A stretch of DNA of 60,676 bases from Spirochaetia bacterium (lineage in GTDB: Bacteria > Spirochaetota > Spirochaetia > CADAEX01): the NCBI GenBank assembly GCA_034003145.1, contig JAVEZE010000001.1, forward strand, positions 1 through 60,676. Direction: 5' to 3'. Below the pieces are notes generated by a model, which was not told the origin of the DNA, searched no databases, and was given only the letters and a program-made list of their open reading frames with translations. Positions 16,804 to 39,406 of the stretch are shown here, one piece after another. Every line of letters begins with the position of its first letter. The first letter of the stretch is position 1. Position numbers and translations under genes: made by a program.

Positions 16804-18291
16804 TCATTTATCTGCAAGATATTTGTTTATACTTTCAGCAGCTTTCCTGCCCTCTCCCATTGCCAGGATAACAGTCGCAGCTCCACGGACAATATCGCCG
16901 CCTGCCCATACCTTTTTCAGGCTGGTCCTCTGCTGCTCATCAACAATAATATTCCCCCGCAGCGTAACATCAAGCCCTTCAGTGGTTTGCGCCATCAGGG
17001 GATTTGAATCATTACCCAAAGCAATGATCATCGCATCAATCGGAATTTCGTGCTCAGTCCCCGGAATTGCGACAGGACTTCGCCTGCCTGAAGAATCCAC
17101 ATCTCCAAGTTTATAATCAAGTACCTCAACCGCGCGGACCTGTCCTTTGTCGTCAGAGAGAATTTGAGTGGGATTTTGTAGAAAGAAAAACTCAACACCT
17201 TCTTCCTCTGCGTGCACTACCTCTTCAGCTCTCGCAGGCATCTCATCGCGTGTACGGCGGTAGATACAATAGACCTTGTCAGCCCCCAGGCGCAAAGCCA
17301 TACGGCATGCATCCATTGCGACATTTCCCCCGCCGACAACCGCGACAACCTTCGCAGGATACAATGGAGTGGCGGCTCTATCAGTATCATAGGCTTTCAT
17401 CAAATTGGCCCGGGTCAAATACTCATTCGCGCTAAAAACTCCAACCAGATTCTCGCCTGGAATATTCATGAATTTGGGATGACCCGCGCCTGTGCCGATA
17501 AAAACCGCGTCATAACCCTCACGGTCAAGCAAATCAAACAAAGACTCAGTGCGGCCGACAAGAAAATTGGTACGGAACTGAACTCCCATCTCTTTTAAAA
17601 CCTCAACTTCCTTGGCAACAATAGCTTTGGGTAAGCGGAACTCAGGAATTCCATATACCAGAACTCCGCCAGTCTTGTGGAATGCCTCAAAAACCGTAAC
17701 ATCATGCCCTTCTCGGCGGATATCTGCAGCAACAGTCAAACCGGCAGGCCCTGAGCCCACAACCGCAACCTTCTTTCCTGTAGGAGGCGCGACAGGAGGA
17801 GGGGTGATCATATCATTCTCCCTCTCCCAATCAGCTACAAACCGCTCAAGCCGCCCGATCGCCACTGCCTTATCTATAGATTTCAAAGATTTCCCCAGGG
17901 TACATGTACTTTGGCACTGCTTCTCCTGCGGGCACACCCGTCCGCAGATTGCGGGGAGCAGATTGGTAATCTTTATTGTCGCAACTGCTTTGGCATAATC
18001 GCCGTCCTGGATACAGGCAATAAACTCAGGGATAGGTACGCCGACAGGACAAGCTGCCACGCAGGGCCTGTTTTTGCACCCCAGACAGCGGGCAGCCTCA
18101 AGCTTTGCCTGCTCCTCCGAATAGCCGAGAGTCACCTCACTCATCTGCCGTGAGCGAATCAAGGGATCCCCGGCTGCCATCTCCTGCACCGGGATAGCCA
18201 TTCTCTCTTTCGGTTTCAGGTCTTTATTTTTCAAACCTGCCCACAGCTTCCTGGCCCCGGCATACAAAACATCCTTATCCACGTGACTCAT
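16804..18291 (-). CDS. nfnB: NfnB/SudA/GltD-type NAD(P)H oxidoreductase large subunit (Fe-S flavoprotein)
   Basis: Cys clusters CLGCKNRPCVAACP and CGRVCPQEKQCQSTC. Two dinucleotide folds, VVGSGPAG and VVGGGNVAMD. Overlaps nfnA by 4 nt. Confidence 0.8.
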   Translation of the reverse strand: MSHVDKDVLYAGARKLWAGLKNKDLKPKERMAIPVQEMAAGDPLIRSRQMSEVTLGYSEEQAKLEAARCLGCKNRPCVAACPVGVPIPEFIACIQDGDYAKAVATIKITNLLPAICGRVCPQEKQCQSTCTLGKSLKSIDKAVAIGRLERFVADWERENDMITPPPVAPPTGKKVAVVGSGPAGLTVAADIRREGHDVTVFEAFHKTGGVLVYGIPEFRLPKAIVAKEVEVLKEMGVQFRTNFLVGRTESLFDLLDREGYDAVFIGTGAGHPKFMNIPGENLVGVFSANEYLTRANLMKAYDTDRAATPLYPAKVVAVVGGGNVAMDACRMALRLGADKVYCIYRRTRDEMPARAEEVVHAEEEGVEFFFLQNPTQILSDDKGQVRAVEVLDYKLGDVDSSGRRSPVAIPGTEHEIPIDAMIIALGNDSNPLMAQTTEGLDVTLRGNIIVDEQQRTSLKKVWAGGDIVRGAATVILAMGEGRKAAESINKYLADK

Positions 18292-19175
18292 CGATTCCCC
18301 CCGGAAACTTTCAACTTATCGGATTCTTTAAGCGCATCAGCTGCCATTTCCATATGACACTTGTGATGATCCGCATCTTCCTGGCTCTTATACGCTTTCA
18401 AGCGGAGCATCATGTTATCCCAGTCAACCAGATGGCCGTCAAACTCAGGCCCGTCAACACAGACAAACTTTGTCTCATTGCCGACAGTTACCCGGCAGCC
18501 GCCGCACATACCTGTCCCGTCAATCATAATAGTATTTAAAGAAACCACTGTATGAATATTAAACGGCTTTGTTGTAAGCGTGCAAAATTTCATCATAATT
18601 GGAGGGCCGATAGCAACCACCTCAGATGGAGGGTTCTCACTCTCGCAAAATTCCTTCAAAGGCTCTGTGACCAAACCTTTTCTCCCATATGAGCCGTCAT
18701 CAGTAACCACAATTACCTCATCGCACACTTCCCTCATCTCATCCTCAAAAATAATCAGATCTTTTGTGCGGGCGCCAATAATAGCTGTAACAATATTGCC
18801 TGCAGCCTTATGGGCTTTTACAATCGGATAAAGGGGGGCAACTCCAATACCTCCGCCAACGCAGACTACAAAACCACTCTTCTCAATAAGAGTCGGCCTG
18901 CCAAGCGGCCCCAGAATCGCCTCAATCTTCTCCCCGGGATTTTTCAGGGCAAGCTTATGGGTAGTCGCTCCAACTGTTTGAAATACAAGGGCAATCCATC
19001 CCTCTTCCGGATTCGCATCCGCAATGGTAAGCGGAATCCGCTCTCCAAATTCTATGTCAATTTGAACCAGCACAAACTGGCCGGCCTTCCTGTTTCGGGC
19101 AATTTCCGGAGCCATAACACGAAGGTAAAAAACCTCATCTGAAAATTGCTTCTTTTCAAGAATTTTGTGCATCAC
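18288..19175 (-). CDS. nfnA: NfnA/SudB/PyrK-type ferredoxin-NADP reductase-like small subunit
   Basis: 295-aa FAD/NAD(P)-binding fold with the C-terminal 2Fe-2S motif GMCGGCRV...FVCVDGP. Confidence 0.8.
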   Translation of the reverse strand: MMHKILEKKQFSDEVFYLRVMAPEIARNRKAGQFVLVQIDIEFGERIPLTIADANPEEGWIALVFQTVGATTHKLALKNPGEKIEAILGPLGRPTLIEKSGFVVCVGGGIGVAPLYPIVKAHKAAGNIVTAIIGARTKDLIIFEDEMREVCDEVIVVTDDGSYGRKGLVTEPLKEFCESENPPSEVVAIGPPIMMKFCTLTTKPFNIHTVVSLNTIMIDGTGMCGGCRVTVGNETKFVCVDGPEFDGHLVDWDNMMLRLKAYKSQEDADHHKCHMEMAADALKESDKLKVSGGNR

Positions 19176-19312: not shown

Positions 19313-20293
19313 TTATAAAACCAAAACCGCCGGATTGGCAACGTTTTCCATCTCCTCTCCGTTAAAAAACCTTACAACCCGTTTTACCCCTTCCATAGCC
19401 ATCCGGAGAGTGCATTCAACAGTAAGGGCTGCGGTATGGGGGGAGAGAATAACATTATCCAGTTTAAGCAGGCCGCTTTCCATTTCAATCGGCTCATTTT
19501 CAAATACATCAAGTCCGGCGCCTGCCATTATTTTCTCTTCCAGCGCCTTAACCAGATCTTTTTCATTTATTATTCCTCCCCTTGATGTATTTATCAGGAA
19601 AGCGGTTTTTTTCATTTTTTTCATTTTGCTGAAATCAAAAAGATCTTTTGTCTCTTTTGTCAGAGGCACATGGATTGAGATATAATCAGATTTTTCGATC
19701 AGGGTATCAAGATCAGTAAACCTGACCCAGTCAGAGAAAGAATCCTTTGCTTGAGGAGGAAGAAAATCATCATTCGCGATTATATTCATAGCGAAACTGT
19801 CGCGGCATATTCTGGCAAGTCCTGATCCTATTCTTCCAAAACCGACAAGGCCGAGTGTTTTATCCCTTACATCTGAAGAGAGGCTCTGATACCTAACCTT
19901 AAAATTACCCTTTCGCACCTCAGAATCAATTTTTATTATATTTTTCGAAAGAGAGAGGATAAACATGAGAGCATGCTCAATCACGCTTGTTGTATTTGCC
20001 CCGAGGCTTGATGTGACAACTATACCAGCTTCAGTTGCCGCCTCAAGATCCACGTTATCCACTCCAGCGCCAGTCCTGCTGATGGTTTTAAGTTTTTTTC
20101 CCTTTTCAATAAGATCACGTGTAATTTTGATTCCTGTCCTTAGAACCACAGCCTCAGCATCAGCGATCTTTTCCGCGACTTCTGAATGTTCGCATTTTGA
20201 ACAAACAACAACTTCGCAGTTGTTTTCAAGAAGATAATCATGCGCTTCCTTTTCAATAGGCTGAGGAAGCAGAACCTTGTGTTTCCCGCTCAT
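19313..20293 (-). CDS. D-isomer-specific 2-hydroxyacid dehydrogenase (PGDH/GyaR-like)
   Basis: NAD fold GLVGFGRIGSGLA, followed by HVPLTKET, NTSRGG, LDVFENEP and SPHTAA. Confidence 0.85.
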   Translation of the reverse strand: MSGKHKVLLPQPIEKEAHDYLLENNCEVVVCSKCEHSEVAEKIADAEAVVLRTGIKITRDLIEKGKKLKTISRTGAGVDNVDLEAATEAGIVVTSSLGANTTSVIEHALMFILSLSKNIIKIDSEVRKGNFKVRYQSLSSDVRDKTLGLVGFGRIGSGLARICRDSFAMNIIANDDFLPPQAKDSFSDWVRFTDLDTLIEKSDYISIHVPLTKETKDLFDFSKMKKMKKTAFLINTSRGGIINEKDLVKALEEKIMAGAGLDVFENEPIEMESGLLKLDNVILSPHTAALTVECTLRMAMEGVKRVVRFFNGEEMENVANPAVLVL

Positions 20294-20318: not shown

Positions 20319-21089
20319 TCACCTTAGGTATCTGCCTCCGCTGACATCAAGTGTGATTCCTGTTATGTATGATGCCTCATCAGACGCGAGAAAAACAACA
20401 GCTGATGCAATTTCACCAGGTGTGCTTAACCTTCTTAACGGGATATTTTTAAGCGTTCTTTCCTGCTCTTCCTTCCCCTTGTCATCCCAGAGCCCTTTTA
20501 CCCGCTCCCCTGTCATTGTGATAGTAGGGGCAACCCCGGTTACCCGTATTCCTTTTTCACCCCAGTCATAGGCAAGCTGCCTGGTAAGACCCTCAACTCC
20601 CGCCTTGGCGGCAGTATACTGTACTCCGGCAAGGCTTGCCCTGTAGTGTGCCGCAAGAGCTGAAATATTGACGATTGAGCCGCCTCCCTGCTCTGCCATT
20701 ATATTTATGGCTTTTCTGCAGCAGAAAAACGCCCCTTTAAGGTTTACATCAAGAACAAGGTTCCAGTGTTTATCCTCAATCTCATTTAATTTATAAGGGG
20801 TGTTAAGCGCGCCTCCAGCGTTATTTACCAGTATATCAAGTTTTCCGTATTTATTTTTAACCGCGTCAAAAACCTCTCCTACCTGCGCATCAACTGTAAC
20901 GTTCATGCTGTAGCCGTCTGCGGTAAATCCTTCCGATTCAAGAGCGGCAACAGTTTTTTCAACCTGCTCGCTGTTAATATCTGTTATTATTATTATGGCG
21001 CCTTCATTGCCAAGTGCTTTCGCGATGGCAAGTCCCATTCCCTGCGCCGACCCGGTAACAATGGCAACTCTTCCCTCAAGTCTTTTCAT
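20319..21089 (-). CDS. SDR-family oxidoreductase
   Basis: TGSAQGMGLA (TGxxxGxG), NNAG and YTAAK (YxxxK). I trimmed the start to the ATG at 21089 (MKRLEG), which follows a GGAG RBS. The 33 upstream codons in the ORF track look non-coding. Confidence 0.85.
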   Translation of the reverse strand: MKRLEGRVAIVTGSAQGMGLAIAKALGNEGAIIIITDINSEQVEKTVAALESEGFTADGYSMNVTVDAQVGEVFDAVKNKYGKLDILVNNAGGALNTPYKLNEIEDKHWNLVLDVNLKGAFFCCRKAINIMAEQGGGSIVNISALAAHYRASLAGVQYTAAKAGVEGLTRQLAYDWGEKGIRVTGVAPTITMTGERVKGLWDDKGKEEQERTLKNIPLRRLSTPGEIASAVVFLASDEASYITGITLDVSGGRYLR

Positions 21090-21229
21090 GGTTTCTCCTA
21101 CAGGATTTATCTTTATGATATTCCAGGTGTGTATCCGGTCTGGCCCTGATGCGCACCTTACAGTAAGATACCCCGAACCTTGCGGCACGGGGCATCTGTA
21201 TTAACATTTAATTACAAAAACCCCGATAA

Positions 21230-22108
21230 CTACGCGCGGTTATTGAAAGCTCTTTTTTCTTCAGGAACCTTAATGTCGAATTTTTTGATTTCCTCGATAA
21301 GAGCAGCAAGAAGTTCGCCGCCTCTCTTGAGGATTTTCTCTCCCTTCTCTTTTGAGGCGCGCAAGGGATTTCCGATTGTTGCAGTATCAGAATATTCATG
21401 GTGTTCCATCGGTACCCACATGCATTCATCGCCCCTGAATGTCACGAATCCTGAACCGTCATGTTTTGTGAACTCCTTTGTCATCCATTTCGGCGCGTGT
21501 GTTCTGTCTTCCTTGGCAAGTTCCATGGCAACAGACTCAGGTTTATACGCCCATGCTGTTGATGTCTCAAGCTCGCCTGCGTGCCAGCCCGGTGTTTCCT
21601 CAGGTGTTCCCTCAAGGATATCTGCGATAAACCTGTAATTCCTTTCTGTCGGGGTTTTAAACCATCCTACAAAACATCCGGTTTCATACCTTATTTTTCT
21701 AAGTACATCATCGATAACTTTTGAGTTGCTTCCATGGTGTGTAACAAATATAAGTTTGTTGTAACCGTGGTATATAAGGCTTTTGGCAAGATCATAAACT
21801 ACTCTTCTGTATGTATCGCCTGAAAAGGTAAGTGTTCCTGTTCCCTCTCCCTCTCTTCCCATATGGTGGGGAGAATATCCTACCGGCATTAAAGGTGTGT
21901 AAAGGGTATCTGTTAATTTAGCAGCTTCTTCAATAACACCCATAGCTGTAAAACTGTCTGTTCCAAGCGGACAATGCGCTCCGTGTTTTTCGATAGATCC
22001 CATGCTTACGATAATTGTATCGTTTTTCTTGAGATGCTCCCGTACATCTGTATATCCCAGATCCAGGATATTCAGGCTTTTTCCTCTTTTCATTCCATCT
22101 GATGACAT
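21230..22108 (-). CDS. creatininase-superfamily metal-dependent hydrolase (copy 1)
   Basis: GSIEKHGAHCPLGTDS, THHGSN and GELETS fit the creatininase-fold metal-ligand pattern. GGAGG RBS 7 nt upstream. Confidence 0.75.
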   Translation of the reverse strand: MSSDGMKRGKSLNILDLGYTDVREHLKKNDTIIVSMGSIEKHGAHCPLGTDSFTAMGVIEEAAKLTDTLYTPLMPVGYSPHHMGREGEGTGTLTFSGDTYRRVVYDLAKSLIYHGYNKLIFVTHHGSNSKVIDDVLRKIRYETGCFVGWFKTPTERNYRFIADILEGTPEETPGWHAGELETSTAWAYKPESVAMELAKEDRTHAPKWMTKEFTKHDGSGFVTFRGDECMWVPMEHHEYSDTATIGNPLRASKEKGEKILKRGGELLAALIEEIKKFDIKVPEEKRAFNNRA

Positions 22109-22136
22109 CTGTAAACCTCCATTGGTTAAATACTAT

Positions 22137-23033
22137 TTATTTCAAAAACCCGCTTTCCTTAAGGTCAGCTTCAAGTGTTTTTTTCTGTTCATCGGTAAGT
22201 CCTAAAAGAGGCTTCCTTGTCAGCCCCCCAGAGAACCCGGCAAGATCCATCGCGTATTTTACTCCCGCAACCCCGTAGGCCCCTGATACTTTTTTATTGA
22301 GATCAACAAGCTTTTTGTTAAGCTCTACCGCTTCAGCTTTTTTTCCTGAAACATAAAGGCTGTAAAGCTCGGCGCAGGAATCAGGAAAAACATTAGCGAG
22401 AGATAAAACCCCGCCTGTTCCCCCTTTATCAAGAAGATCAAGAAAGTATCCCGCGCTCCCTGCCATTACGGAAAAATCGCTGCTGTTAAATACCACGTTT
22501 TCAGGCCATGTCTCCTTGCTCGAATCCTTGATTCCCGCGACATTGGCATGCTGTGATACCACCTTGATAACAGCCGGCCTTATTGTGACTCCCGCTGCCA
22601 CTGAAGGATTGTTGTAAAGAACCACAGGTATTGGGGATGCGTCTGCCACATCCGTGATATGCCTTATCATCACTTCATCTGTAATTTTCTTCGCGAAAAA
22701 ATTGGGCATCAGAAGACTTACCATAACCGCGCCCATATCGGCGGCTTTTTTAGTAAGTCTGATTGTTTCCCTGGTGCTTTCGGCTCCGGTTCCTGCCATT
22801 ACAATTTTCCCCGGAGCAGCTTTTTTAATTGCGATAGAGAGTACCCTGAATCTTTCTTCTTCAGACATGGTTTTGAATTCTCCATTTGTTCCAAGGACAA
22901 AATACCCTTTAAGGCCTGAAGAGTTCATCAGTTCCACATTTTTTTCAAATCCGGCATAGTCTACTTCATCATTTTCAAATGGAGTACACATCGGGGAATA
23001 AACCCCGGAAAGCATTTCTTTAGCTTTGATCAT
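22137..23033 (-). CDS. DHDPS/N-acetylneuraminate-lyase family class I aldolase
   Basis: GYFVLGTNGEF and the Schiff-base lysine context AGIKDSS. I moved the start to the ATG at 23033, which follows AGGAGG. The track start at 23048 is a TTG. Confidence 0.8.
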   Translation of the reverse strand: MIKAKEMLSGVYSPMCTPFENDEVDYAGFEKNVELMNSSGLKGYFVLGTNGEFKTMSEEERFRVLSIAIKKAAPGKIVMAGTGAESTRETIRLTKKAADMGAVMVSLLMPNFFAKKITDEVMIRHITDVADASPIPVVLYNNPSVAAGVTIRPAVIKVVSQHANVAGIKDSSKETWPENVVFNSSDFSVMAGSAGYFLDLLDKGGTGGVLSLANVFPDSCAELYSLYVSGKKAEAVELNKKLVDLNKKVSGAYGVAGVKYAMDLAGFSGGLTRKPLLGLTDEQKKTLEADLKESGFLK

Positions 23034-23075
23034 TATTCCTCCTGGCAAATTATCCGCCTATAAGTTATAAGTTAA

Positions 23076-24329
23076 TCACTTTCCCTTTATAAAACTGAAA
23101 AGCTTATTGACTGCTATATCAATAAATTCACTGTCATTTATATGCATATCAAGTTCGTTATACGGAACATCTTTACGTAAATTCTTTTTAAGCGCCCCTA
23201 TAAATGCCGCGTTCCCTTCCGGGTCCCAATGCTCCCTCTCTATTGAATCAGGAAAGGAAAATCCCCTAAGCGGGATGTAAACATGCACCTTGCCTTTTGA
23301 AAGATTTATTTTTTGCGCAGTTATCTTCCCGACTTCGGTAAGCTCATCAGGTGTAAGTCTTACGAGAGTGAGAAAAGAGTTGTGTATAATGTGCTGCCTC
23401 TTTTTAAGCTCATCGCTTACTTCAGCATAAGGGCCCTGTACTGTATAGTTGATGCTGCCCGGCGCTATAACCTGGGGAAGCCCTGTCCTTGCCGCGCTTT
23501 CAAGCCGCCCTTCCCTTACCGAGCCGTGAAGCCCTCCGAAATAACGGTCGCCGATTTCATGAAGATTTATGTCAAGAACTCCCTTAAAAAGCCCTTCCTC
23601 TATCATTTCTTCCATCGCTATTCCGCCTGTGCCGTTCTGGTGAAACGCGACAAAATCATAATTCTCTTTTTCGATAAGTTCCTTGGCATAAAGGGCTCCC
23701 GGGGTTGTAGTGCCAAGCATACTGACAGCGATTGACCCTGCCCGCCCTGCGCCGCTTCGCCCTAAGCTTTGCCGTCTTGCCTTAACCATACCGCAGACTG
23801 CAGAAGCTGCATTGTCAAAAACACTTCTTGTGACTATATTAAGCCCTTGAATATCGCATACAGAATGCATCATTATAATGTCTTTTGTCCCGGTAAAAGG
23901 GCCGAAAGCCGCCTTTCCTGAGGCAACTGTTGATACCATGAATTTGGGAACTCCGAAAGGAAGCTCTCTCATCGCGGCTGTCCCAATATCTGTTCCTTGA
24001 GCTCCGCCTATTGAAAGAACTGCCGCTATTTTACCTTCGCTGTAAAGCCTCTTCGTGATTATCTTGATTCCCTTTGTAATCGACTTTATGCTGTAGCCTT
24101 TGTCTTTTTTTGCCTTAAGCTCGTCTATGGAAAGGGCGCAGCCTGCCTTGACAATCTCTTCCCCCCTGATGTCTTCTTTTCCCATGATGTCAGTTTTCCC
24201 GGCAAGAGAAAGGAATACTCCGGTGTTAGCAAGTATTACTTTTTCCCCGTGGCTTTCGATCCGGGCCTTTACATAGGAGGCTTCTTCTGATTTTGTATCA
24301 AGTGTTGCGATAAGTAAAACAGAGGACAT
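23076..24329 (-). CDS. UPF0261 / Tm-1-like ATP-binding domain protein
   Basis: 417 aa with N-terminal LLIATLDTKSEEASYVKARIE, characteristic of the UPF0261 family. No PEP-hydrolase-like TIM-barrel partner lies next to it. Confidence 0.7.
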   Translation of the reverse strand: MSSVLLIATLDTKSEEASYVKARIESHGEKVILANTGVFLSLAGKTDIMGKEDIRGEEIVKAGCALSIDELKAKKDKGYSIKSITKGIKIITKRLYSEGKIAAVLSIGGAQGTDIGTAAMRELPFGVPKFMVSTVASGKAAFGPFTGTKDIIMMHSVCDIQGLNIVTRSVFDNAASAVCGMVKARRQSLGRSGAGRAGSIAVSMLGTTTPGALYAKELIEKENYDFVAFHQNGTGGIAMEEMIEEGLFKGVLDINLHEIGDRYFGGLHGSVREGRLESAARTGLPQVIAPGSINYTVQGPYAEVSDELKKRQHIIHNSFLTLVRLTPDELTEVGKITAQKINLSKGKVHVYIPLRGFSFPDSIEREHWDPEGNAAFIGALKKNLRKDVPYNELDMHINDSEFIDIAVNKLFSFIKGK

Positions 24330-24334: not shown

Positions 24335-25411
24335 CTACTCCTGGGGCTTTGAAATAACTTTTATCGCGCCGTCAATCCTGTTGTTGAATGTATCAAATGC
24401 CTCATTTATTTTAGCAATCGGGAATGTATGGGTAATAAGCGGCTTAAGATCAACAATCCCTTTATTTAAAAAAGTCGCTGCCCGTCCAACGTTTGCCCAT
24501 CCTTCGCCCCTTACAGTAAAAATATGCTTATTGTTAAGGGCAAGATCCTCAAAATCGGCAGGAAACGGTTTATGAGGGAAAGCAAGAAGGAGAATTTTTC
24601 CCATTCTTTTTGCTGATTTTATTGAAAGCCCAAGCCCTGCCTCAGAACCGGAAGCCTCTATCGCGAGGTCACACCCTTTACCGCCTGTTTCCTTCATTAT
24701 TATTTCAAGAGGATCCTGCTTTTTGGTATTGATGATAATATCGGCACCTGTCTTTTCAGCAATCTGCAGCCTTGAGTCTCTTGTGCCAAGCAGTATTATC
24801 TTTCCCGCGCCAAGAGCTCTTGCAGCCTGAACCGCGTTTAGACCCAGAGGTCCCGGGCCGATTATCACAATTGTGTCGCCTGCTATAAATCCGCCGATTG
24901 TCTCAAATCCGTATAATACGCATCCCAGGTTTGTCGCGAGGGATGCCTCATCAAAAGATACTTTGTCCGCTATTTTGTGAACTGTATTTATATGGTTTAT
25001 AACATACTGGGCATTGCCGCCGTTAGTGGTAAAACCGTTTGCCCTGTGCCCTTTGGCGGTATCACCGTAATTAAGGCATCCTGTGTAGTTTCCAAGGCGG
25101 CAATTCCTGCACCTGCCGCATCCGTTATGCGCCTCTACTGTTACCCGGTCGCCCACTGCGAACTCGTCAACCGTCTCACCAAGGGCAGCGACTGTTCCGG
25201 AATACTCATGTCCTATTATAAAATCCCCGTAGGGAGGCTGGCCCGGAAAAGGTTTGTGGATAAGCCCTGTATCAGAGCCGCACAATGCGCAGGACTCGAC
25301 TTTAATAAGTACATCTACCGGCCCAGGTGCCGGCACCTTCATCTCCTTGACTTCAAGTTTATCCGGCCCCATAAGGACAACAGCTTTCATAAATTCCGGA
25401 ATATTAGTCAT
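24335..25411 (-). CDS. MDR-family Zn-dependent dehydrogenase (sorbitol/threonine-DH-like)
   Basis: CGSD...GHEYSG, structural-Zn cluster GCGRCRNC and the GPGPLG fold. It is a clear paralog of the 41528-42598 product. Confidence 0.85.
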   Translation of the reverse strand: MTNIPEFMKAVVLMGPDKLEVKEMKVPAPGPVDVLIKVESCALCGSDTGLIHKPFPGQPPYGDFIIGHEYSGTVAALGETVDEFAVGDRVTVEAHNGCGRCRNCRLGNYTGCLNYGDTAKGHRANGFTTNGGNAQYVINHINTVHKIADKVSFDEASLATNLGCVLYGFETIGGFIAGDTIVIIGPGPLGLNAVQAARALGAGKIILLGTRDSRLQIAEKTGADIIINTKKQDPLEIIMKETGGKGCDLAIEASGSEAGLGLSIKSAKRMGKILLLAFPHKPFPADFEDLALNNKHIFTVRGEGWANVGRAATFLNKGIVDLKPLITHTFPIAKINEAFDTFNNRIDGAIKVISKPQE

Positions 25412-25417: not shown

Positions 25418-26119
25418 TTATTCTCCTTCAATTATAATCTTGAACTCGTTTTCAACATCCACTATGTGATCATACATGTATGAAAAAGCCAGATGTTCAT
25501 CCCCAATGCTGATTGCCTTGAAAATCTTTTCATGAAAATCAAGTGATTTAGGCATTATATTGCTATACCTTTCAATCAGGACTACTGCCTGATTTTTCTT
25601 CATAAGATCCTTGAAGCTTTTAATAAAAGTCTCAAGAATTGTATTGCCTGAAGCTTCAAAAACAAGATCATGAAAACGGCTGTCATGAAGTATGAAATCA
25701 TCAACATTTCCTGCGCCGTTTTTCATCTCATCAAGCTCAAGCTCAAGCTTCTCAACCAAATCTTTATCAGCGCGCCTGGCGGCAAACCCTGCCAATGCCG
25801 GCTCTATAACTTTCCTTACTTCAATAATTTCAATTATATCCCTGTATTCATCAAGTTTGATTTCTACATCAGGTTTTAACTTTCCTTCTGTTACAAAGGT
25901 CCCGTTCCTTTTCCTTTCAACAAGTCCCATATGTATCAGAACTTTAAGTGCTTCACGCACAGTTCCCCGTCCGACACCCATGCTTTCTGCGAGTGACTCC
26001 TCCGCAGGCAGCCTTTGCCCTGTTTTAAGTCTTCTGCTTAAAATTTCGTTTTTGAGATATTCAACAATCTCTTCTGACATACTCACGCGGTCAATTTTTT
26101 TAAAATCCATACCTGTCAC
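25418..26119 (-). CDS. GntR-family transcriptional regulator, FadR subfamily (wHTH + FCD domain)
   Basis: The N-terminus LPAEESLAESMGVGRGTVREALKVL is a GntR wHTH. The C-terminal all-helical region of about 150 aa is typical of FCD domains. Confidence 0.85.
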   Translation of the reverse strand: MTGMDFKKIDRVSMSEEIVEYLKNEILSRRLKTGQRLPAEESLAESMGVGRGTVREALKVLIHMGLVERKRNGTFVTEGKLKPDVEIKLDEYRDIIEIIEVRKVIEPALAGFAARRADKDLVEKLELELDEMKNGAGNVDDFILHDSRFHDLVFEASGNTILETFIKSFKDLMKKNQAVVLIERYSNIMPKSLDFHEKIFKAISIGDEHLAFSYMYDHIVDVENEFKIIIEGE

Positions 26120-26137: not shown

Positions 26138-26182
26138 TTTGTATGACAATACTACTGTACCATCATTTTACCTAATTGTCAA
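26138..26182 (-). promoter_or_regulatory. promoter TTGACA-17-TACAGT with the dyad operator ATTGTCATACAAA 3 nt downstream (GntR autoregulation site)
   Basis: Minus strand: -35 at 26177-26182, -10 at 26154-26159 (preceded by TGG), dyad at 26138-26150. Confidence 0.6.
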
Positions 26183-26211: not shown

Positions 26212-27252
26212 TCAAAGTTCTTTAAAAACTATCCTGCCGTAGATGCTGTCAAGCATAGAACCGTCAAAAACCTTATTTAAGGAAGACATTTCCATCTCAG
26301 ATGAGACAATCGGCTTCAGTGTACCGTTTTTAACATAATTTATCAGCTCAATTAATTCCTGTTTTGTACCAAGCCGGGAGCCTATAATTTCCCATTCATT
26401 GTAATGCATACCCAGGGCATCAAGCGGAACAGGCTTAAGAGGATCATACCCCATCAGAACAAGCTTGCCTCCCTTTTTCAGGCTTTTAAGCGCCCAGGGA
26501 AATGTCACTGCTGTACCTACTCCGTCAAGAACAACATCAGCGCCAAAACCTTCAGTCCATTCCCTGATTGCAGAAACAGGGTCCTGAGATTCCGGGTTAA
26601 ATACAACATCAGCCCCAAACCTCGTTGCTTCAGCCAGTGATTTATCCCTGATGTCAGCACCGGCAACTTCCGCACCAAGCATCTTGCCAAGCAAAACAGC
26701 ATGAAGGCCGAGTCCTCCAAGTCCGATGACAAGAACTTTTACGCCACTTTTTACTTTTCCAAGCGCTTTTAAGGCATGGTAAGGGGTAAGGACTGCATCA
26801 GGAAGGACAGCCATCTCTGCCCATAAGACCTTATGGTCATCAACAGGGCAGAAATTATATGCAGGGATTGCTATATATTCAGCAAATGCCCCGTCAAGCT
26901 CAAACCCTGTCCTTTTTATCTCAAAACAGATGTTCTCTCTTCCTGTTCTGCAAAGCCCGCAGTCCCTGCATGGTATGTAGTGATATACTATCCCCCTGTC
27001 ACCAGGTTTTAATCTTTTAACATTCTTTCCTGTCTCAACTATTTCCCCTGCCCCTTCATGTCCGGGGATATGGGGAAGCTTGATTATTCCGTCAAGTTTA
27101 CCGGTATATATTTTCATGTCTGTTCCGCAGATTCCTGCAGCTTTTACCCTTACAAGAACATCATCATCGCCGACCGGCGGCAGTGGAACATCTTTTAATA
27201 CCAGGGGGCTGTTATACTTTTCAAGAACCCAGGCTTTCATTGTATTTTTCAT
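26212..27252 (-). CDS. MDR-family Zn-dependent alcohol dehydrogenase
   Basis: CGTD, GHEGAG, CRDCGLCRTG and GLGGLG. I placed the start at ATG 27252 (MKNTMKAWVL), which follows a GAGG RBS. The track start at 27264 is a TTG. Confidence 0.85.
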   Translation of the reverse strand: MKNTMKAWVLEKYNSPLVLKDVPLPPVGDDDVLVRVKAAGICGTDMKIYTGKLDGIIKLPHIPGHEGAGEIVETGKNVKRLKPGDRGIVYHYIPCRDCGLCRTGRENICFEIKRTGFELDGAFAEYIAIPAYNFCPVDDHKVLWAEMAVLPDAVLTPYHALKALGKVKSGVKVLVIGLGGLGLHAVLLGKMLGAEVAGADIRDKSLAEATRFGADVVFNPESQDPVSAIREWTEGFGADVVLDGVGTAVTFPWALKSLKKGGKLVLMGYDPLKPVPLDALGMHYNEWEIIGSRLGTKQELIELINYVKNGTLKPIVSSEMEMSSLNKVFDGSMLDSIYGRIVFKEL

Positions 27253-27270
27253 TTTCAACCTCAATTTTCT

Positions 27271-28146
27271 TTAATCGTTGAATCCGAACGCTGTTCCCTT
27301 AACCCCGTAAAGACCGGTTGGTTTTATAAGGATAGTGATAAACATAACGATAAATGGGCCTACAAATGCAAGAGGAGCCCAGATTGTCCCTCCGACATTT
27401 ATAACCTGCCCCAGGACAAGGGAGGCGACCATTGTTCCCTTAATACTTCCCAGGCCGCCCAGTATTACGGTAATGAATGCGAATAAAAGCATATCAAACC
27501 CCATATAAGGTCCGACCATCACAAGAGGCGCGTTAAGCGCTCCCCCAAGCCCGGCAAAAGCGCTTGCGATTACAAATGTGGTTGTGAATATCCTGTTGAT
27601 ATTAACCCCAAGCCCTTCTACGTTTTCCCTGTTTTCAATTCCTGCCCGCAGAGCTTTGCCGGTAATTGTTTTGTTCATTAAAATCTGTATAAAAAGATAT
27701 GCGGCTGCAGCAATAACAATAATGATAAGCCTGTAAAGCGGTATCTGAATATTCATCAGCCGTACTATTGTTGAAATCGGAGATGCAACAGGTTTTGGGT
27801 CAAGGCCGTAGATAAACTGGATAACGCCGATACCTATCATGAATACACTGAAAGTCACAACCATCGTAAACATCATGTTCCTGTGATAAACTTTTCTTAA
27901 AAGGGTTGTTTCGACAATGAATCCAAGCAGCCCTCCTATAAGCGCTGCTCCTACCGCTCCAAGGAGAAAGCTTCCGGTTAAAGTTACTATCGTATATGTA
28001 ATATATGCGCCGAATGAATAGTAAAGCATTGCTTCCATGTTAACTATTCTCATAAGTCCGTAACCGATTGATAATGCAAGTGATATCAGAAATAATATTC
28101 CGCTTGTACTTAATCCGTATATAATTGCTGTAAACCAGGTTTCCAT
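27271..28146 (-). CDS. livH: branched-chain-amino-acid-type ABC permease (LivH-like)
   Basis: 291-aa polytopic protein in a LivG-F-M-H-type gene order. The substrate is not inferable. Confidence 0.8.
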   Translation of the reverse strand: METWFTAIIYGLSTSGILFLISLALSIGYGLMRIVNMEAMLYYSFGAYITYTIVTLTGSFLLGAVGAALIGGLLGFIVETTLLRKVYHRNMMFTMVVTFSVFMIGIGVIQFIYGLDPKPVASPISTIVRLMNIQIPLYRLIIIVIAAAAYLFIQILMNKTITGKALRAGIENRENVEGLGVNINRIFTTTFVIASAFAGLGGALNAPLVMVGPYMGFDMLLFAFITVILGGLGSIKGTMVASLVLGQVINVGGTIWAPLAFVGPFIVMFITILIKPTGLYGVKGTAFGFND

Positions 28147-28164
28147 AATTTTCCTCTTGATATT

Positions 28165-29154
28165 TTATTTTTCTGCTGTCTTGATACTTTCTTTTTTGTA
28201 TTTTTTGGATAAATCAAAGATAAAGCTGCCGGTATCCTGAATCAGGCCCCATAGCCCCCTGTTGAATTTAAAAAGGACAACAAGCGTCATAATGCCTACA
28301 ACAAATTCCCATCTTGAAAGCCAGCTGCTCACAAAGTCTTTCATCCCGAGGAAACCAAGCGCTCCGAAAAAAGGGCCGTAAACTGTCCCGATACCGCCGA
28401 TCAACGTAGCCAGCAGAACCTCAATCGCTCTTGAATTTTCCCCGAGACTGGGATTGACAAACCCGAAATTGACAGCATAAAGCGATCCTGCAATTGTTGA
28501 GAATACTACAGAAATAGTATAGGCGAGCCATCTGATCCTGAAAACATTGTAGCCGAGAAACCTCATTTTCCGCGGATTGGAGTTTGAGGCCTTGAGTATA
28601 GATCCTAGCGCTGATTTGTCCATTTTCCGGTAAATATATAATGCGGCCAGAAGGACAAACATTATAAAAAAGAAATAATTCTGCGGCAGCCTTATGTCAA
28701 GGAAAGGTGTCTTTGCCATATTGCTTCTGTACCACAGTCCGTCATTTCCGTTTGTAATATCGATAAGAAGCCTCTCAAACATGAATACTCCGATCGCGCA
28801 AAGAGAGGCGTTGATAAGGGTAAAATAACTCCCCTTAAGCCGCATCAGGCTGGGGCCAAGTATCAAAGAAAGCAGGAGGCCGACCAGAACGGCAAATAAC
28901 ATTGCGACAAAAACATTCCCGCCGAGATATGCCAGGTAAAGGGCTGCTGCATATGCCCCGCAGCTTAAATAGAACGGCTGGCCGAATGAGGTATATCCCA
29001 TATATCCCATAAGGATATTGTTGCCCATTACAAAAATTGTATATATCGATATTTCAGTAAAAAAGGTTATCTTGTTGGGAAACAGATAACGGCTTATCAA
29101 AAGACCGATAATAATAAAAACCGGTCCGAATATTTCAAGTTTCTTAAGTTTCAT
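28165..29154 (-). CDS. livM: branched-chain-amino-acid-type ABC permease (LivM-like)
   Basis: 329-aa polytopic protein adjacent to the LivH-like gene. Confidence 0.8.
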   Translation of the reverse strand: MKLKKLEIFGPVFIIIGLLISRYLFPNKITFFTEISIYTIFVMGNNILMGYMGYTSFGQPFYLSCGAYAAALYLAYLGGNVFVAMLFAVLVGLLLSLILGPSLMRLKGSYFTLINASLCAIGVFMFERLLIDITNGNDGLWYRSNMAKTPFLDIRLPQNYFFFIMFVLLAALYIYRKMDKSALGSILKASNSNPRKMRFLGYNVFRIRWLAYTISVVFSTIAGSLYAVNFGFVNPSLGENSRAIEVLLATLIGGIGTVYGPFFGALGFLGMKDFVSSWLSRWEFVVGIMTLVVLFKFNRGLWGLIQDTGSFIFDLSKKYKKESIKTAEK

Positions 29155-29171
29155 AGAAGCTCCTGTAACCT

Positions 29172-29867
29172 TTATAAATATTGCTCAAAGCATAAATTAC
29201 CAATATCTTCCCTGCTGATAATTTCATTGACAACCTTGCCTTCTTTCATGCAGTAAACCCTGTCGGCGATTTCCGCTATCAGGGGAAGGTTCTGTTCCAC
29301 TATAAACAATGTCGTGGTTTTACTAAGTTTTTTAAAAATTGCAGCCAGGTCCTTGATTACATGGGGAGCAAGCCCTTCAGTCGGCTCATCCAGCATGACA
29401 AGGCTGGGCTTTCCTATCATGGCCATAGCGATAAGAAGCATCTGTTTTTCACCGCCGCTTAAGTTCCCTGCCTTCCTGTCAATCAGCTCCCTGAGCTTCG
29501 GAAACATTCCAAGAACAGGTTCCCAGTCATAATCTTTTGTCGCATAACTGCTTAACTCGAGGTTTTCTTTTACGGTAAGATCTCCGAAAACCTGCTTATC
29601 CTGATGGATATATTTAAGCCCTGATCTTGCAGTCTTGTAGGCCCCTGTTTTATTTATGTTATTACCCTTGAATTCTATATTTCCCTCCGCGGGGGAAAGA
29701 AAGCCGGCAATTGTCCTGAAAAGGGTAGTTTTTCCCGCTCCGTTTCTGCCTACAAGAAATACAACCTCGCCGGCATTCACATTAACAGAAACATCAAAAA
29801 GCACAGCAAGTTTTCCGTAACAGACATTCAGATTGTCAACTTTCAAAAGTTTACTTTCCTGATTCAT
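29172..29867 (-). CDS. livF: ABC ATP-binding protein, LivF-like
   Basis: Walker A GRNGAGKTT, signature LSGGEKQML and Walker B LDEPTEGL. 231 aa. Confidence 0.85.
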   Translation of the reverse strand: MNQESKLLKVDNLNVCYGKLAVLFDVSVNVNAGEVVFLVGRNGAGKTTLFRTIAGFLSPAEGNIEFKGNNINKTGAYKTARSGLKYIHQDKQVFGDLTVKENLELSSYATKDYDWEPVLGMFPKLRELIDRKAGNLSGGEKQMLLIAMAMIGKPSLVMLDEPTEGLAPHVIKDLAAIFKKLSKTTTLFIVEQNLPLIAEIADRVYCMKEGKVVNEIISREDIGNLCFEQYL

Positions 29868-29902
29868 TTACTTCTCCGTATTTTATAAAAAATATTGAAA
29901 AA

Positions 29903-30664
29903 TCATTCTTCGATTTTCCAATAGGATTTTCGAACAACAGGATTATTAAGTGTTTCCTCACACGGCCCTGATGCTATCATTTTCCCCTCATGCATTACGC
30001 ACAGGGTATCAACAATCTCTGTCAGCTTTGAAAGCTTGTGCTCAACAATAATTATTGTCTTTTTATGCAGCTGCTTTTTTAATATTTCAATTATCTCGTC
30101 AATTTCATGATCGCTTATTCCTGCAAACGGTTCATCAAGAATAAAAACATGGGGATCGGAAATCCAGGCCATGGCAATTTCAAGCCTTTTCTGACTGCCC
30201 AGTGAGAGATTACCGACAATCTGACTGCTTTCTTTTTCAAGGCTGAATACCCTGAGCGCCTCTTCAACTTTCTCTGTAATCTTATTGTGTTTTTTGAAAT
30301 TTGTATTGTAAAGATTCAGAGGCATGGATTTGTTTTCCATTTTTCTGTAAATCGATAACGCGAGATTTTCAAAAGCAGTTATATTATCAAAAACATGAAC
30401 CAGCTGGAATGTTCTGACTATACCCTTTGCTACCCTCTTTTCGCTTTTCATCGAAGTTATATCCTCGCCCTGAAAAAAAACGCGTCCTTCTTCCGGAATA
30501 TATTCACCTGTCAATATGTTTATAAATGTTGTTTTACCGGCGCCGTTAGGCCCGAATATTCCGACAGCATCGTTTTCTTTTATGCTGAAATCAACATTAT
30601 CAACTGCTTTGAATAATCCGAATATTTTTGATACATTTTTTGTCTCAAATATGGCTTCGCTCAT
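29903..30664 (-). CDS. livG: ABC ATP-binding protein, LivG-like
   Basis: Walker A GPNGAGKTT, degenerate signature LSLGSQKRLEIA and Walker B ILDEPFAG. 253 aa. Confidence 0.85.
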   Translation of the reverse strand: MSEAIFETKNVSKIFGLFKAVDNVDFSIKENDAVGIFGPNGAGKTTFINILTGEYIPEEGRVFFQGEDITSMKSEKRVAKGIVRTFQLVHVFDNITAFENLALSIYRKMENKSMPLNLYNTNFKKHNKITEKVEEALRVFSLEKESSQIVGNLSLGSQKRLEIAMAWISDPHVFILDEPFAGISDHEIDEIIEILKKQLHKKTIIIVEHKLSKLTEIVDTLCVMHEGKMIASGPCEETLNNPVVRKSYWKIEE

Positions 30665-30771
30665 TTTTTACTCCCGATATTAAAATACCGCATCCGCCAG
30701 GGATGCATGATGCATTAATTAGCATTTTTTTGAGATCAGATGCTTTATTACCTTGGGATCATCGCTTTCAT

Positions 30772-31149
30772 TTATTTTTTAGCAGGCATATAAGGCATAG
30801 CCGGCGCGAACACATTGTAAAGCTTGACAGTTTTTTTGATGTTTTTTATGGTATGTTTTGTGTTAGGCGGAACCATAACAACCATTCCCGCTTCAAGGGG
30901 AAACTCACCTTCTCCCTCGATAAACATTGTTGCCTCCCCCTCAAGGACATGAATAAGGTCAGGCTGGTCGCGGTGAACATGCTCAGGCAAAGAGAGCCCT
31001 TCCCTGAGTTCTATCAGCATAACAGTAATCGGTGTTCCGTCTTTTTCCCTGGAATATATCCATTTAATTTTACTGCCGCCGTCATCCATGAAATGCTCTT
31101 CCCATGGGACATCGCTTATTTTTTTCTTTACTTCATATTTTGGTACCAT
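30772..31149 (-). CDS. cupin domain protein
   Basis: 125 aa with cupin motifs LPEHVHRDQPDLIHVLEG and VMVPPNTKH. Confidence 0.75.
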   Translation of the reverse strand: MVPKYEVKKKISDVPWEEHFMDDGGSKIKWIYSREKDGTPITVMLIELREGLSLPEHVHRDQPDLIHVLEGEATMFIEGEGEFPLEAGMVVMVPPNTKHTIKNIKKTVKLYNVFAPAMPYMPAKK

Positions 31150-31173
31150 TTTTTACCCCTTCTCCTATTTGAA

Positions 31174-32418
31174 TTAATATCCCATTACAGAAAGAGGAGG
31201 AAGAACTTCTTCTCCTCCGAATGAGTCGACCACAGTGAATAAATCCCAATTATTTTTCTTTTCAGCAGGGGTTTTCCCCTTTAAAAGAAAAGCGGTATGG
31301 TCATTTATCGGCTGTCTGTCTTTTCTGAAAATGTAGCTCCCTTTTATTGTGTCGATTTTTTTAGTCTCAAATATATTACTAACCTTTTCAGGATCAAATG
31401 TCCCTGCCTCTTCAACTGCCCCGAATATAAGCTTCGCGGCAAGGTATGCCGCAGTTCCCATATTATCCGGCGGCTCATTCCATCTTGCCATGTAGGCATC
31501 CGAGTATTTTTTTACCTTTTCAGCTACTGCCTTGTCTTTGAATCCTGTTAAATCATAATAAAACCACGCAAGCGCATAATGCCCGGCAAGAGCGTTCTCG
31601 GGAATCCCCTTGGCTACTATATTTGCGGTCCAGACATTAAAAATTGTGCTTACATCATAAAACCCAAGGTCATATGCCTGCTTAAGATTTGCTATCGCGT
31701 CTCCGCCGAACATTGTAGTGACAAAAACATCGGGTTTTAACCTGAGCGCCTTGTTTATGACTGCAGAATAATCAACAGTCCCTGCCGGCAGCTCTTCAAC
31801 CGCAACTATTTCTGTACCGTATTGTTTACACGCCGCTTCAAGCCCTTCCTGAATAACTGTACCCCATGAATCAGCTCTCTTCAGCAGAAAAATGGTTTTT
31901 TTACCCAGATTCTTCGCGATAGACTGGCCTGTAATATACCCGATGCTCCACGGTGTAAAAGTGGGAGTGTAGGAACATACAGCAGGATTTCCTGCCATAA
32001 AAGCGTCTTTCGCCGGCACAAAGCCAGGAACATATATAACAGGATTTATTTTTGTCTCTTCATTAAGTGCAGCAGACATGGGATTCCAGATTCCCCCTGT
32101 AAGTGCATCCATTCCCTGGTCCATCATTTCCCTGAATTTTCTCACCCCCACATCAAGCTTTGCCTGATCATCCTCTATCATTGATTCAACAGGAATCTTT
32201 CCCCAGGGCATATCAAGACCGCCGGCTGCGTTTATTTCTTCCACTGCAAGGATAAATGATTTTTTCTGGGTTTCTGCGACACCTGCAAAAGTGCCGCTCA
32301 ATGAAGAAGAAAAACCCATCTTGAAAACTGTGGGGTTTTCCTCTTCCTTCTTTCCTGCTGCGAATAGAACTGATGCGGCGCATATCAAAAGTATGGCAAA
32401 AAATAATTTTTTCTTCAT
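31174..32418 (-). CDS. Liv-type (periplasmic-binding-protein type 1) ABC substrate-binding protein, copy 2
   Basis: Signal peptide (LFAAGKKE). It shares long blocks with copy 1: FKMGF, ETQKK, GGLDMPWGK, AKLDVGVR and WNPMSAA. Confidence 0.8.
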   Translation of the reverse strand: MKKKLFFAILLICAASVLFAAGKKEEENPTVFKMGFSSSLSGTFAGVAETQKKSFILAVEEINAAGGLDMPWGKIPVESMIEDDQAKLDVGVRKFREMMDQGMDALTGGIWNPMSAALNEETKINPVIYVPGFVPAKDAFMAGNPAVCSYTPTFTPWSIGYITGQSIAKNLGKKTIFLLKRADSWGTVIQEGLEAACKQYGTEIVAVEELPAGTVDYSAVINKALRLKPDVFVTTMFGGDAIANLKQAYDLGFYDVSTIFNVWTANIVAKGIPENALAGHYALAWFYYDLTGFKDKAVAEKVKKYSDAYMARWNEPPDNMGTAAYLAAKLIFGAVEEAGTFDPEKVSNIFETKKIDTIKGSYIFRKDRQPINDHTAFLLKGKTPAEKKNNWDLFTVVDSFGGEEVLPPLSVMGY

Positions 32419-32459
32419 TTTTAATAAAACTCCTTAAAACCTTTTTCAGGAAATATTTT

Positions 32460-32531
32460 ACAGCCGCAGCCGGATGTGATACCCGGCGCTGCTGTAATTT
32501 TTTTCTCTGATATCAGTTCCCGGATATCAGA
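32460..32531 (-). other. two stem-loops between the tandem binding-protein genes
   Basis: Imperfect GC-rich hairpin at 32460-32495. Perfect 9-bp stem TCTGATATC (32506-32514) / GATATCAGA (32523-32531), 2 nt after the copy-1 stop codon. Confidence 0.55.
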
Positions 32532-32533
32532 AT

Positions 32534-38828: not shown

Positions 38829-38893
38829 GTATTATCCCTAAATTATTTTGTTTTCTGTATAATCATATAATAATCATATTATATGTTTATTAT

Positions 38894-39400: not shown

Positions 39401-39406
39401 ATTTGG

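Follow-up and report, generated by a model that had tools for sequence, protein, structure and literature searches.

A seven-gene operon around a creatininase-superfamily hydrolase

The window analysed here, a stretch of 60,676 nucleotides from a Spirochaetota metagenome-assembled genome (2.8 Mb, 95.6% complete), encodes a hydrolase of the creatininase superfamily, hereafter copy 1, which together with the genes that accompany it is the subject of this work. Copy 1 (P0001, 292 aa; 21230-22108, minus strand) matches PF02633 with 184 bits. Beside it, on the same strand, lie the genes of a class I aldolase of the DHDPS/NAL family (P0002, 22137-23048; PF00701, 178 bits) and of a UPF0261 protein of the Tm-1/MarK family (P0003, 23076-24329; PF06792, 172 bits; PF23189, 206 bits), which also scores 419 bits on the NCBIfam model NF002674 (cut-off 335). 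An earlier note on this DNA, made from the sequence, had described these three minus-strand open reading frames as a contiguous triad, and indeed they are separated by gaps of only 27-28 nt. As a conserved unit, however, the triad was drawn too small, since the recurring set comprises MDR dehydrogenase, UPF0261 protein, aldolase, hydrolase, SDR oxidoreductase and 2-hydroxyacid dehydrogenase. In the window, seven minus-strand genes run from 26119 to 19313 with gaps of 5-41 nt. The first encodes a GntR/FCD-family regulator (25418-26119, with GntR and FCD domain matches) and the second a Zn-dependent MDR dehydrogenase of the polyol/secondary-alcohol type (MDR_B, 24335-25411; ADH_N and ADH_zinc_N). 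The UPF0261, aldolase and hydrolase genes follow in this order, with an SDR oxidoreductase gene directly downstream of the hydrolase (20319-21188; adh_short_C2, 210 bits) and a D-isomer-specific 2-hydroxyacid dehydrogenase (2HADH) gene in last position (19313-20293; 2-Hacid_dh and 2-Hacid_dh_C). Translation of the aldolase may begin at either of two codons, TTG at 23048 or ATG at 23033, and homologues of the protein align only from about residue 12.

The oxidoreductases of the operon belong to large families and score as such. MDR_B obtains 204 bits on the IolM model (cut-off 450) and 192 bits on Tdh, reaching neither cut-off, and its best solved relatives are threonine and sorbitol dehydrogenases. 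The SDR protein reaches the cut-off of a generic subfamily model only (NF005559, 225 versus 215 bits), and the 2HADH is closest, among solved structures, to McyI (246 bits) and phosphoglycerate dehydrogenase (225 bits). A profile search of the whole genome found a single UPF0261 gene and exactly two PF02633 genes, copy 1 and a copy 2 that also lies in the window (49605-50576, minus strand). Both are set among MDR genes, as previously noted: copy 1 is accompanied by those at 24335-25411 and 26212-27264, and copy 2 by those at 46509-47564 and 47579-48835.

Recurrence of the neighbourhood in two cluster types

To place the operon in context, about 97 non-redundant loci were gathered from genome and metagenome collections, each with a copy-1 homologue (57-98% identity) and its flanks. 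Gene content was scored by tblastn with the proteins of the window and of variant clusters, and the first counts given here refer to those 33 whose flanks reach at least 3 kb to either side of the hydrolase. A UPF0261 gene is found near the hydrolase in 27 of them, so that the protein regarded as an orphan in the earlier note turns out to be the hydrolase's usual partner. DHDPS-family aldolase genes are present in 21 loci and class II aldolase genes in 10; one or the other, never both, occurs in 31. MDR dehydrogenase, SDR and 2HADH genes accompany the hydrolase in 23, 19 and 18 loci, respectively, and the strict triad of hydrolase, DHDPS-family aldolase and UPF0261 protein in 16. In a count not confined to these 33, the immediate downstream neighbour of the hydrolase is the SDR gene in 34 loci. 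According to their records, the clusters belong to at least four phyla (Spirochaetota, Thermodesulfobacteriota, Bacillota and SAR324), and conservation of the neighbourhood, on which the earlier note had made its reading depend, thus extends across phyla. The distribution is nevertheless patchy within a phylum: only 4 of 401 sampled Spirochaetota genomes have a copy-1 orthologue.

Two arrangements account for most of this diversity. Type A consists of the UPF0261, DHDPS-family aldolase, hydrolase, SDR and 2HADH genes in this order, optionally preceded by GntR and MDR_B genes and often found with a Liv-type ABC transporter; the MDR_B gene goes with UPF0261 in these loci, and the position of the GntR regulator is kept in related ones. 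It is carried by Spirochaetota, by SAR324 (locus L022) and by many metagenome contigs. Type B opens with a LacI regulator, followed by hydrolase, UPF0261, class II aldolase, optionally an MFS transporter, a divergent AP_endonuc_2 TIM barrel (APE2), TctCBA and a further MDR dehydrogenase (MDR_C). This arrangement was seen in L019 and L023, both from Thermodesulfobacteriota, in the Bacillota locus L020, which has a DASS carrier, and, again, in many metagenome contigs. The window combines a type A operon with type B accessory genes. In a further variant (L001/L046 and L014-L016), the aldolase-hydrolase-SDR-2HADH series occurs without MDR or UPF0261 genes. Upstream of this series, L001/L046 (3348-8861) encode a 789-aa protein that resembles transketolase in its N-terminal third alone, a member of the adenosine-deaminase family, a pair of small cupins and a divergently oriented FmdA/AmdA-like amidase, and this variant may process a nitrogen-containing precursor.

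The two types differ in what travels with what. In a quick IQ-TREE phylogeny of 95 hydrolase sequences, restricted to the copy-1 clade, type A and type B hydrolases are interleaved, and those of L073 (class II aldolase) and L079 (DHDPS-family aldolase and 2HADH) are 94% identical. UPF0261 proteins of the A and B types, in contrast, share only 37-42% identity, and they follow the aldolase closely: DHDPS-family aldolase is paired with the A-type protein in 28 loci and class II aldolase with the B-type protein in 14, with a single mixed case. Because near-identical hydrolases serve both cluster types, they would be expected to catalyse the same upper-pathway reaction everywhere. Because the UPF0261 subtype tracks the aldolase type and the hydrolase does not, the candidate kinase and the aldolase look like an exchangeable lower module, which in type A would include SDR and 2HADH and in type B APE2. 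The class II aldolases of type B score under every equivalog cut-off, with L-ribulose-5-phosphate 4-epimerase (145 bits) and 3-oxo-tetronate-4-phosphate decarboxylase (126 bits) among their best NCBIfam matches. Characterised sugar-acting members of the Aldolase_II family use phosphorylated substrates, a habit that fits a kinase acting just before the aldolase in type B.

One closed Spirochaetia chromosome (OY759746.1) contains two MDR-UPF0261-aldolase-hydrolase-SDR blocks (L006, 1724702-1745577; L007, 1642687-1663562), which lie about 82 kb apart and whose hydrolases are 97% identical. The second block has a different Liv-type ABC set (49-65% identity) and its own GntR regulator, suggesting that the block was duplicated recently and acquired another transporter.

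In the window, the same strand carries two more operons upstream of the seven-gene one. The ABC operon (26212-33796) encodes two Liv-type binding proteins (32534-33796 and 31174-32418), two ABC ATPases, two permeases and another MDR dehydrogenase (MDR_A, 26212-27264), all assigned by Pfam; orthologous sets flank the hydrolase in L005-L007, L017, L024, L049, L052, L076 and L110. The accessory operon (37305-42598), likewise assigned by Pfam, consists of the genes for MDR_C (41528-42598), APE2 (40568-41488), TctC (39490-40491), TctB (38894-39349) and TctA (37305-38828), all of them proteins also found with the hydrolase in type B clusters. Identity to their counterparts in L019, L020 and L023 is 56-74% for APE2, 59-69% for TctC/TctA and 46-54% for MDR_C. 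APE2 gave no NCBIfam match and no sequence match in the PDB. Divergently transcribed from the accessory operon is a small Cupin_2 protein gene (42743-43144, plus strand; Pfam), with homologues beside the hydrolase in L055, L064, L066, L072 and L073.

An operator-like dyad lies upstream of each of the three operons. The palindrome ATTGTA-N-TACAAT has two matches in the window, where 0.16 would be expected: an exact one, ATTGTATTACAAT (33822-33834), just downstream of the best promoter-like site of the ABC operon (TTGACA-16-TAAAAT, 33865-33838), and one with a single mismatch, ATTGTACGACAAT (42628-42640), upstream of MDR_C. A weaker copy with two mismatches, ATTGTCATACAAA (26138-26150), is located just downstream of the promoter-like -10 element of the GntR operon. 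We propose that the three co-directional operons between 42598 and 19313 form one GntR-controlled island with the triad as its core.

Hydrolase, aldolase and candidate kinase

Copy 1 and copy 2 are as divergent as the earlier note had supposed: both match PF02633, and they share 26% identity over about 200 residues. Copy 2 is a true IolN, the 3-dehydro-scyllo-inosose hydrolase, to judge from its score on NF041098 (524.6 bits, cut-off 245) and from its neighbours IolM (530 bits), IolG (52809-53825, 471 bits) and an IolO-like protein below cut-off (232 versus 300 bits). Copy 1 belongs to no named subfamily and stands about equally far from all three for which models were compared. It scores 86.3 bits on creatinine amidohydrolase (TIGR04448, EC 3.5.2.10; cut-off 235), with residues 17-206 aligned only, 81.7 bits on IolN (cut-off 245) and 75.1 bits on MftE (TIGR03964; cut-off 172), and no radical-SAM or Mft-like gene is present in its annotated neighbourhood. 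The earlier analogy between copy 1 and IolN therefore keeps its plausibility by genomic context and loses any backing from similarity, as copy 1 is no closer to IolN (82 bits) than to creatininase (86 bits).

Residue comparisons lead to the same placement. Copy 1 retains the metal ligands E40, H42, D51, H125 and E181 and the general base H176, which align with E34, H36, D45, H120 and E183 and the catalytic His178 of creatininase. These residues define the superfamily and are no specific sign of creatininase activity. The residues that we take, from published structures, to contact creatinine are mostly replaced: E122 by S127, Y121 by G126 and W154/D155 by Y158/R159, with W174 kept as W175; creatininase mutant entries (E122Q, W154F/A) are among those listed by the structure search. 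With scores far under the cut-offs and no equivalents of E122 and W154/D155, the identification of copy 1 as a creatinine amidohydrolase or an MftE peptidase, to which the earlier note had been exposed, came out negative. An AlphaFold model of copy 1 (predicted local confidence, pLDDT, 78) has the creatininase fold (template-modelling score 0.67-0.69, 22-23% identity), and this predicted structure confirms the fold only.

Compared with Pseudomonas putida creatininase (1J2T, 1Q3K, 3A6x), copy 1 thus shares the fold, the binuclear metal ligands and the His178 equivalent, and differs in overall sequence, in its contact residues and in an extra conserved segment; moreover, no creatine or sarcosine genes are found near it. 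The extra segment spans residues 208-236, WMTKEFTKHDGSGFVTFRGDECMWVPMEH (window 21400-21490), and is almost invariant in the clade, the near-invariant residues being K215, D217, G218, F224, G226, E228 and P233-M-E-H236. It falls within the region that does not align to the Pseudomonas enzyme, is modelled with a pLDDT below 50, and may serve as a lid over the substrate or in contacts within an oligomer. A 'P-(F)-H-H-[ML]-G' loop was considered as a link between copy 1 and IolN and discarded, as it is superfamily-wide: an alignment of 103 sequences shows HH in 45 of them and xHM in most, with true creatininase as the outlier.

The aldolase P0002 is not DapA: it scores 166 bits on TIGR00674 (cut-off 206), and a true dapA (386 bits) is found on another contig, C57. 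Its best solved relative is human 4-hydroxy-2-oxoglutarate aldolase, HOGA1 (3s5o, 180.6 bits; next match 141). G53-T54-N55-G-E57, Y145 and K174-D-S176 of P0002 align with the GSNGE, YS.P and MKDS motifs of HOGA1; the first of these binds the carboxylate, Y145 is the catalytic tyrosine and K174 the Schiff-base lysine. We propose that P0002 is a HOGA1-like enzyme catalysing a retro-aldol cleavage that forms pyruvate. In human hydroxyproline catabolism HOGA1 acts alongside GRHPR, and the operon likewise encodes a 2HADH of the glyoxylate/hydroxypyruvate-reductase superfamily together with an aldolase bearing the motifs of HOGA1 (3s5o/3s5n). Unlike HOGA1, P0002 is bacterial and has no hydroxyproline-pathway enzymes nearby.

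UPF0261 proteins are known from all three domains of life, among eukaryotes also from plants (tomato Tm-1). The only member with demonstrated activity is MarK of Novosphingobium aromaticivorans (Saro_1862, PDB 9MPY), shown in 2025, in an evolved mutant form, to be an ATP-dependent aromatic kinase; it phosphorylates phenolic hydroxyl groups, and its ATP lysine K16 was created by an E16K mutation (PMC12624787). P0003 matches this structure with 194 bits, and both are two-domain UPF0261 proteins. D11-T12-K13 of P0003 aligns with D14-T15-K16 of MarK, so that K13, native here, corresponds to the ATP lysine K16 of MarK and K20 of Tm-1, and all seven UPF0261 sequences in the comparison have the DTK motif. 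Of the acetovanillone-site residues of MarK, H219 and H304 correspond to H230 and H316 of P0003, and the ketone-binding H348 is replaced by P360. The genes near P0003 are also unlike those of MarK: biotin carboxylase and acetovanillone genes are missing, and the context is sugar-acid-like, not aromatic. P0003 is therefore probably a kinase with an acceptor other than that of MarK.

As the earlier note stated, the PEP-hydrolase-like TIM barrel (PF09370) that often accompanies UPF0261 is lacking: no match was found in the 95.6%-complete genome, while both UPF0261 and PEP_hydrolase were matched in the control, Haloferax volcanii. Locus L112 (Ga0233431_1000049, 1-20864) harbours three UPF0261 paralogues within 20 kb: one in a classical UPF0261-PEP_hydrolase pair behind a Liv-type ABC importer, one in a type B cluster and a third after a second MDR gene and a cupin.

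A proposed pathway and its rivals

Literature searches returned no published description of this gene combination (the term IolN matched mainly author initials). What is new here is the census, the finding that the two aldolases exclude each other, the correspondence of kinase subtype and aldolase type against the background of a near-identical hydrolase, and the HOGA1-like aldolase. We favour, with a probability of about one half, the view that the GntR-controlled island catabolises an acidic, ring-shaped, sugar-like compound, which would be oxidised, opened, phosphorylated and split. The substrate is probably cyclic, sugar- or polyol-like, nitrogen-free and carboxylate-bearing. Neither aminotransferase nor deaminase genes are found in the conserved gene set, the transporters vary across loci between TctABC, DASS, MFS and Liv types, and the regulators are of the GntR/FCD or LacI families; the missing nitrogen-handling enzymes, the carboxylate-type transporters and the LacI/GntR regulators together point to a nitrogen-free acid.

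The catalytic roles and the order of the steps are what we infer from gene families and context. Uptake would proceed via the Liv-type ABC system and/or TctABC, and MDR_B or MDR_C would oxidise a secondary alcohol. The creatininase-family enzyme, common to all cluster types, would then open the oxidised ring by hydrolysis, and copy 1 is accordingly proposed as the hydrolytic ring-opening step of the upper pathway. Redox tailoring of the open-chain acid by SDR and 2HADH would yield a 4-hydroxy-2-oxo acid, which the UPF0261 protein would phosphorylate at the expense of ATP, before the HOGA1-like aldolase released pyruvate and a small C2-C3 fragment by retro-aldol cleavage. In other lineages, another module would stand in for the last three steps, built of a TIM-barrel isomerase, a UPF0261 protein of another subtype and an aldolase of class II. 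The earlier proposal that the aldolase splits the product of the hydrolase holds in so far as hydrolysis followed by aldol cleavage fits the anatomy of the operon, and has to be amended in that SDR, 2HADH and kinase probably act in between.

Which bond the hydrolase would cut is less clear. Cleavage of a C-C bond in a 1,3-dicarbonyl ring, as by IolN, is a minority possibility which, for copy 1, draws on analogy of context: IolM, IolN and IolO bring together the same three superfamilies, and several secondary-alcohol dehydrogenases are encoded in the cluster. The model for this is the oxidative myo-inositol pathway of Thermotoga maritima, given as IolG-IolM-IolN-IolO (Rodionova et al., 2013, Environ Microbiol 15:2254, as cited in PMC5931981); the T. 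maritima operon also includes a kinase, TM0415, with an uncertain true acceptor, and an orthologous cluster is present in the window (46509-53825). As in that route, an MDR dehydrogenase, a creatininase-family hydrolase and an AP_endonuc_2 TIM barrel travel together around copy 1, with several dehydrogenases upstream of the hydrolase and a kinase in the operon. In other respects the two differ. Copy 1 reaches only 82 bits on IolN, MDR_B and MDR_C reach about 200 bits on IolM (cut-off 450), APE2 has no IolO match, and the conserved set of copy 1 has no GFO/IDH/MocA gene. Furthermore, its transporters point to a carboxylate and not to a neutral cyclitol, and its lower part consists of UPF0261 and a DHDPS-family or class II aldolase instead of UxaB/UxaA/KdgK/KdgA. 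A lactone C-O bond is a doubtful candidate, entertained because type B resembles the Otn and Ula/Yia-Sgb routes, and an amide or lactam bond an improbable one, with the remaining likelihood falling to other bonds.

More tentatively, the copy-1 clade and its UPF0261 kinases may represent an undescribed, widespread anaerobic pathway for a plant or algal cyclic carboxylate, in which the hydrolase performs a non-amide ring opening (C-C or C-O) and two kinase-aldolase modules are interchangeable. Candidate substrates would include hydroaromatic acids of the quinate/shikimate type, products of ascorbate oxidation and lactones of saccharinic or aldaric acids. Sample names suggest that the carriers live in anoxic digesters, in sediments and perhaps in termite guts, and the substrate may be a quantitatively relevant plant- or algae-derived acid in anoxic habitats. 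If this is correct, non-amide opening would be new for the creatininase superfamily, UPF0261 would acquire its first physiological non-aromatic kinase role, and both modules would funnel one ring-opened product into central metabolism. The cluster offers a natural, well-conserved context for assigning physiological substrates to both families; since the hydrolase is near-identical and kinase and aldolase are swapped, the product of the hydrolase is the first target, followed by the kinase subtypes on tailored derivatives.

Several points weigh against the favoured pathway. A pyruvate aldolase needs a 3-deoxy carbon, and with no dehydratase in the cluster the source of this CH2 group is unexplained. 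The likeness to HOGA1 suggests a non-phosphorylated dicarboxylate, a poor fit with a kinase acting just before the aldolase, and the variant without UPF0261 and MDR (L001, L014-L016) may mean that the kinase sits on a side branch; some type B loci (L073, L074, L081, L082) also have no UPF0261 gene nearby. Liv-type importers often carry amino acids or amides, and three of the four characterised reactions of the creatininase superfamily are amide hydrolyses; to our knowledge these four are the only ones assigned. The census has limits of its own, as tblastn with proteins of the window may mis-assign generic families such as SDR and MDR, and metagenome loci are not phylogenetically independent. 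Substrates were also mapped by hand, namely quinate/shikimate, 5-keto-hexonates, aldarates, KDG/DKII, metasaccharinate and dehydroascorbate. Each gave a partial fit to the enzymes and none was adopted, since none provides the 3-deoxy carbon without a dehydratase or reconciles a kinase with a HOGA1-like aldolase.

In a rival reading, the hydrolase would be a lactonase whose substrate is either dehydroascorbate or an acid sugar closed as a 1,4- or 1,5-lactone (of the aldono-, aldaro- or urono-type, C4-C6). The remainder of the pathway would then be Otn- or Yia/Sgb/Ula-like, with UPF0261 in place of a DUF1537/FGGY kinase, the TIM barrel as OtnI/UlaE and the class II aldolase as OtnC/UlaF; in the window, the HOGA1-like aldolase would carry out the final cleavage. 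The Otn pathway of Zhang et al. (PNAS, 2016) and the ula and yia-sgb pathways of Escherichia coli reportedly need no dehydratase. Type B clusters do combine a dehydrogenase, a hydrolase, an AP_endonuc_2 barrel, a kinase and an Aldolase_II protein, whose matches to the epimerase and decarboxylase named above lie below cut-off, and the carboxylate-type transporters and LacI or GntR regulators of the clusters suit an acid sugar. The known routes for L-threonate/D-erythronate (LtnD/DenD-OtnI-OtnK-OtnC) and for L-ascorbate/2,3-diketogulonate (UlaG-D-E-F; YiaK-LyxK-SgbH-U-E) resemble type B in dehydrogenase, AP_endonuc_2 isomerase, kinase and Aldolase_II protein. They differ in that the type B kinase is of the UPF0261 family, that there is no UlaD/SgbH protein of the OMP-decarboxylase type, that all type B scores stay below equivalog cut-offs and that the window uses a class I aldolase. 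Neither an NCBIfam nor a PDB match of significance backs APE2 in the OtnI/UlaE role. Lactonases, moreover, are often dispensable, whereas the hydrolase is the best-conserved protein of the cluster; MDR_B is of the secondary-alcohol and not of the aldose-1-dehydrogenase type; and we know of no lactonase in the creatininase superfamily. On balance we regard a lactonase as rather unlikely.

Amide chemistry is the precedent of the superfamily, since most of its characterised members, such as creatininase, ArfB and MftE, cut amides. Copy 1 might accordingly be a cyclic-amide or N-acyl hydrolase acting on an amino-acid-like or heterocyclic carboxylate imported by the Liv-type system, with the nitrogen leaving as ammonia or amine. 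The amidase and the adenosine-deaminase-family protein placed beside the aldolase-hydrolase-SDR-2HADH series in L001 and L046 would agree with this. Yet aminotransferases, deaminases and amino-acid dehydrogenases are missing from the conserved type A and type B sets, the creatinine contacts are not kept, and the TctABC, DASS and MFS transporters and LacI regulators of type B are typical of sugar acids, which makes this explanation improbable. Slightly harder still to accept is a two-component reaction, in which the UPF0261 protein phosphorylates the acidic enol or enediol of a cyclic dicarbonyl, analogous to the phenolic hydroxyl group used by MarK, and the hydrolase processes the phospho-intermediate, replacing the PEP-hydrolase-like partner. 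Hydrolase and UPF0261 genes are directly adjacent in 19 type B loci, their pairing holds down to 46% hydrolase identity (L028), the genome is devoid of PF09370, and L112 contains a hydrolase-UPF0261 pair as well as the classical one. Against such a partnership, the kinase subtype follows the aldolase while the hydrolase stays near-identical across types, several loci have the hydrolase without UPF0261, and in type A the aldolase gene sits between the two. Finally, SDR, MDR and 2HADH genes turn up frequently in catabolic islands of every sort and might have become neighbours by accident or from unrelated pathways. This is very improbable indeed and already contradicted by the census, as both the set of genes and their order are found again in dozens of loci, spread over four or more phyla; the intergenic gaps of 5-41 nt and the shared operator-like dyad likewise speak against it.

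Two further gene groups of the window deserve mention. The region 46509-53825, which includes copy 2, is a Thermotoga-type inositol cluster; it also encodes a second GFO/IDH/MocA dehydrogenase, a hydroxypyruvate-isomerase-like TIM barrel and an extra MDR dehydrogenase, and, unlike the T. maritima operon, contains no kinase. Downstream of the 2HADH gene, an NfnAB-like pair (16804-19175) consists of a sulfide/dihydroorotate-dehydrogenase-like FAD/NAD protein and a GltD-like subunit. It is separated from the operon by a gap of 137 nt and has its own promoter-like site. As only distant relatives (37-39% identity) were found elsewhere, about 3 kb downstream in L005, L006 and L009, this pair probably lies outside the module.

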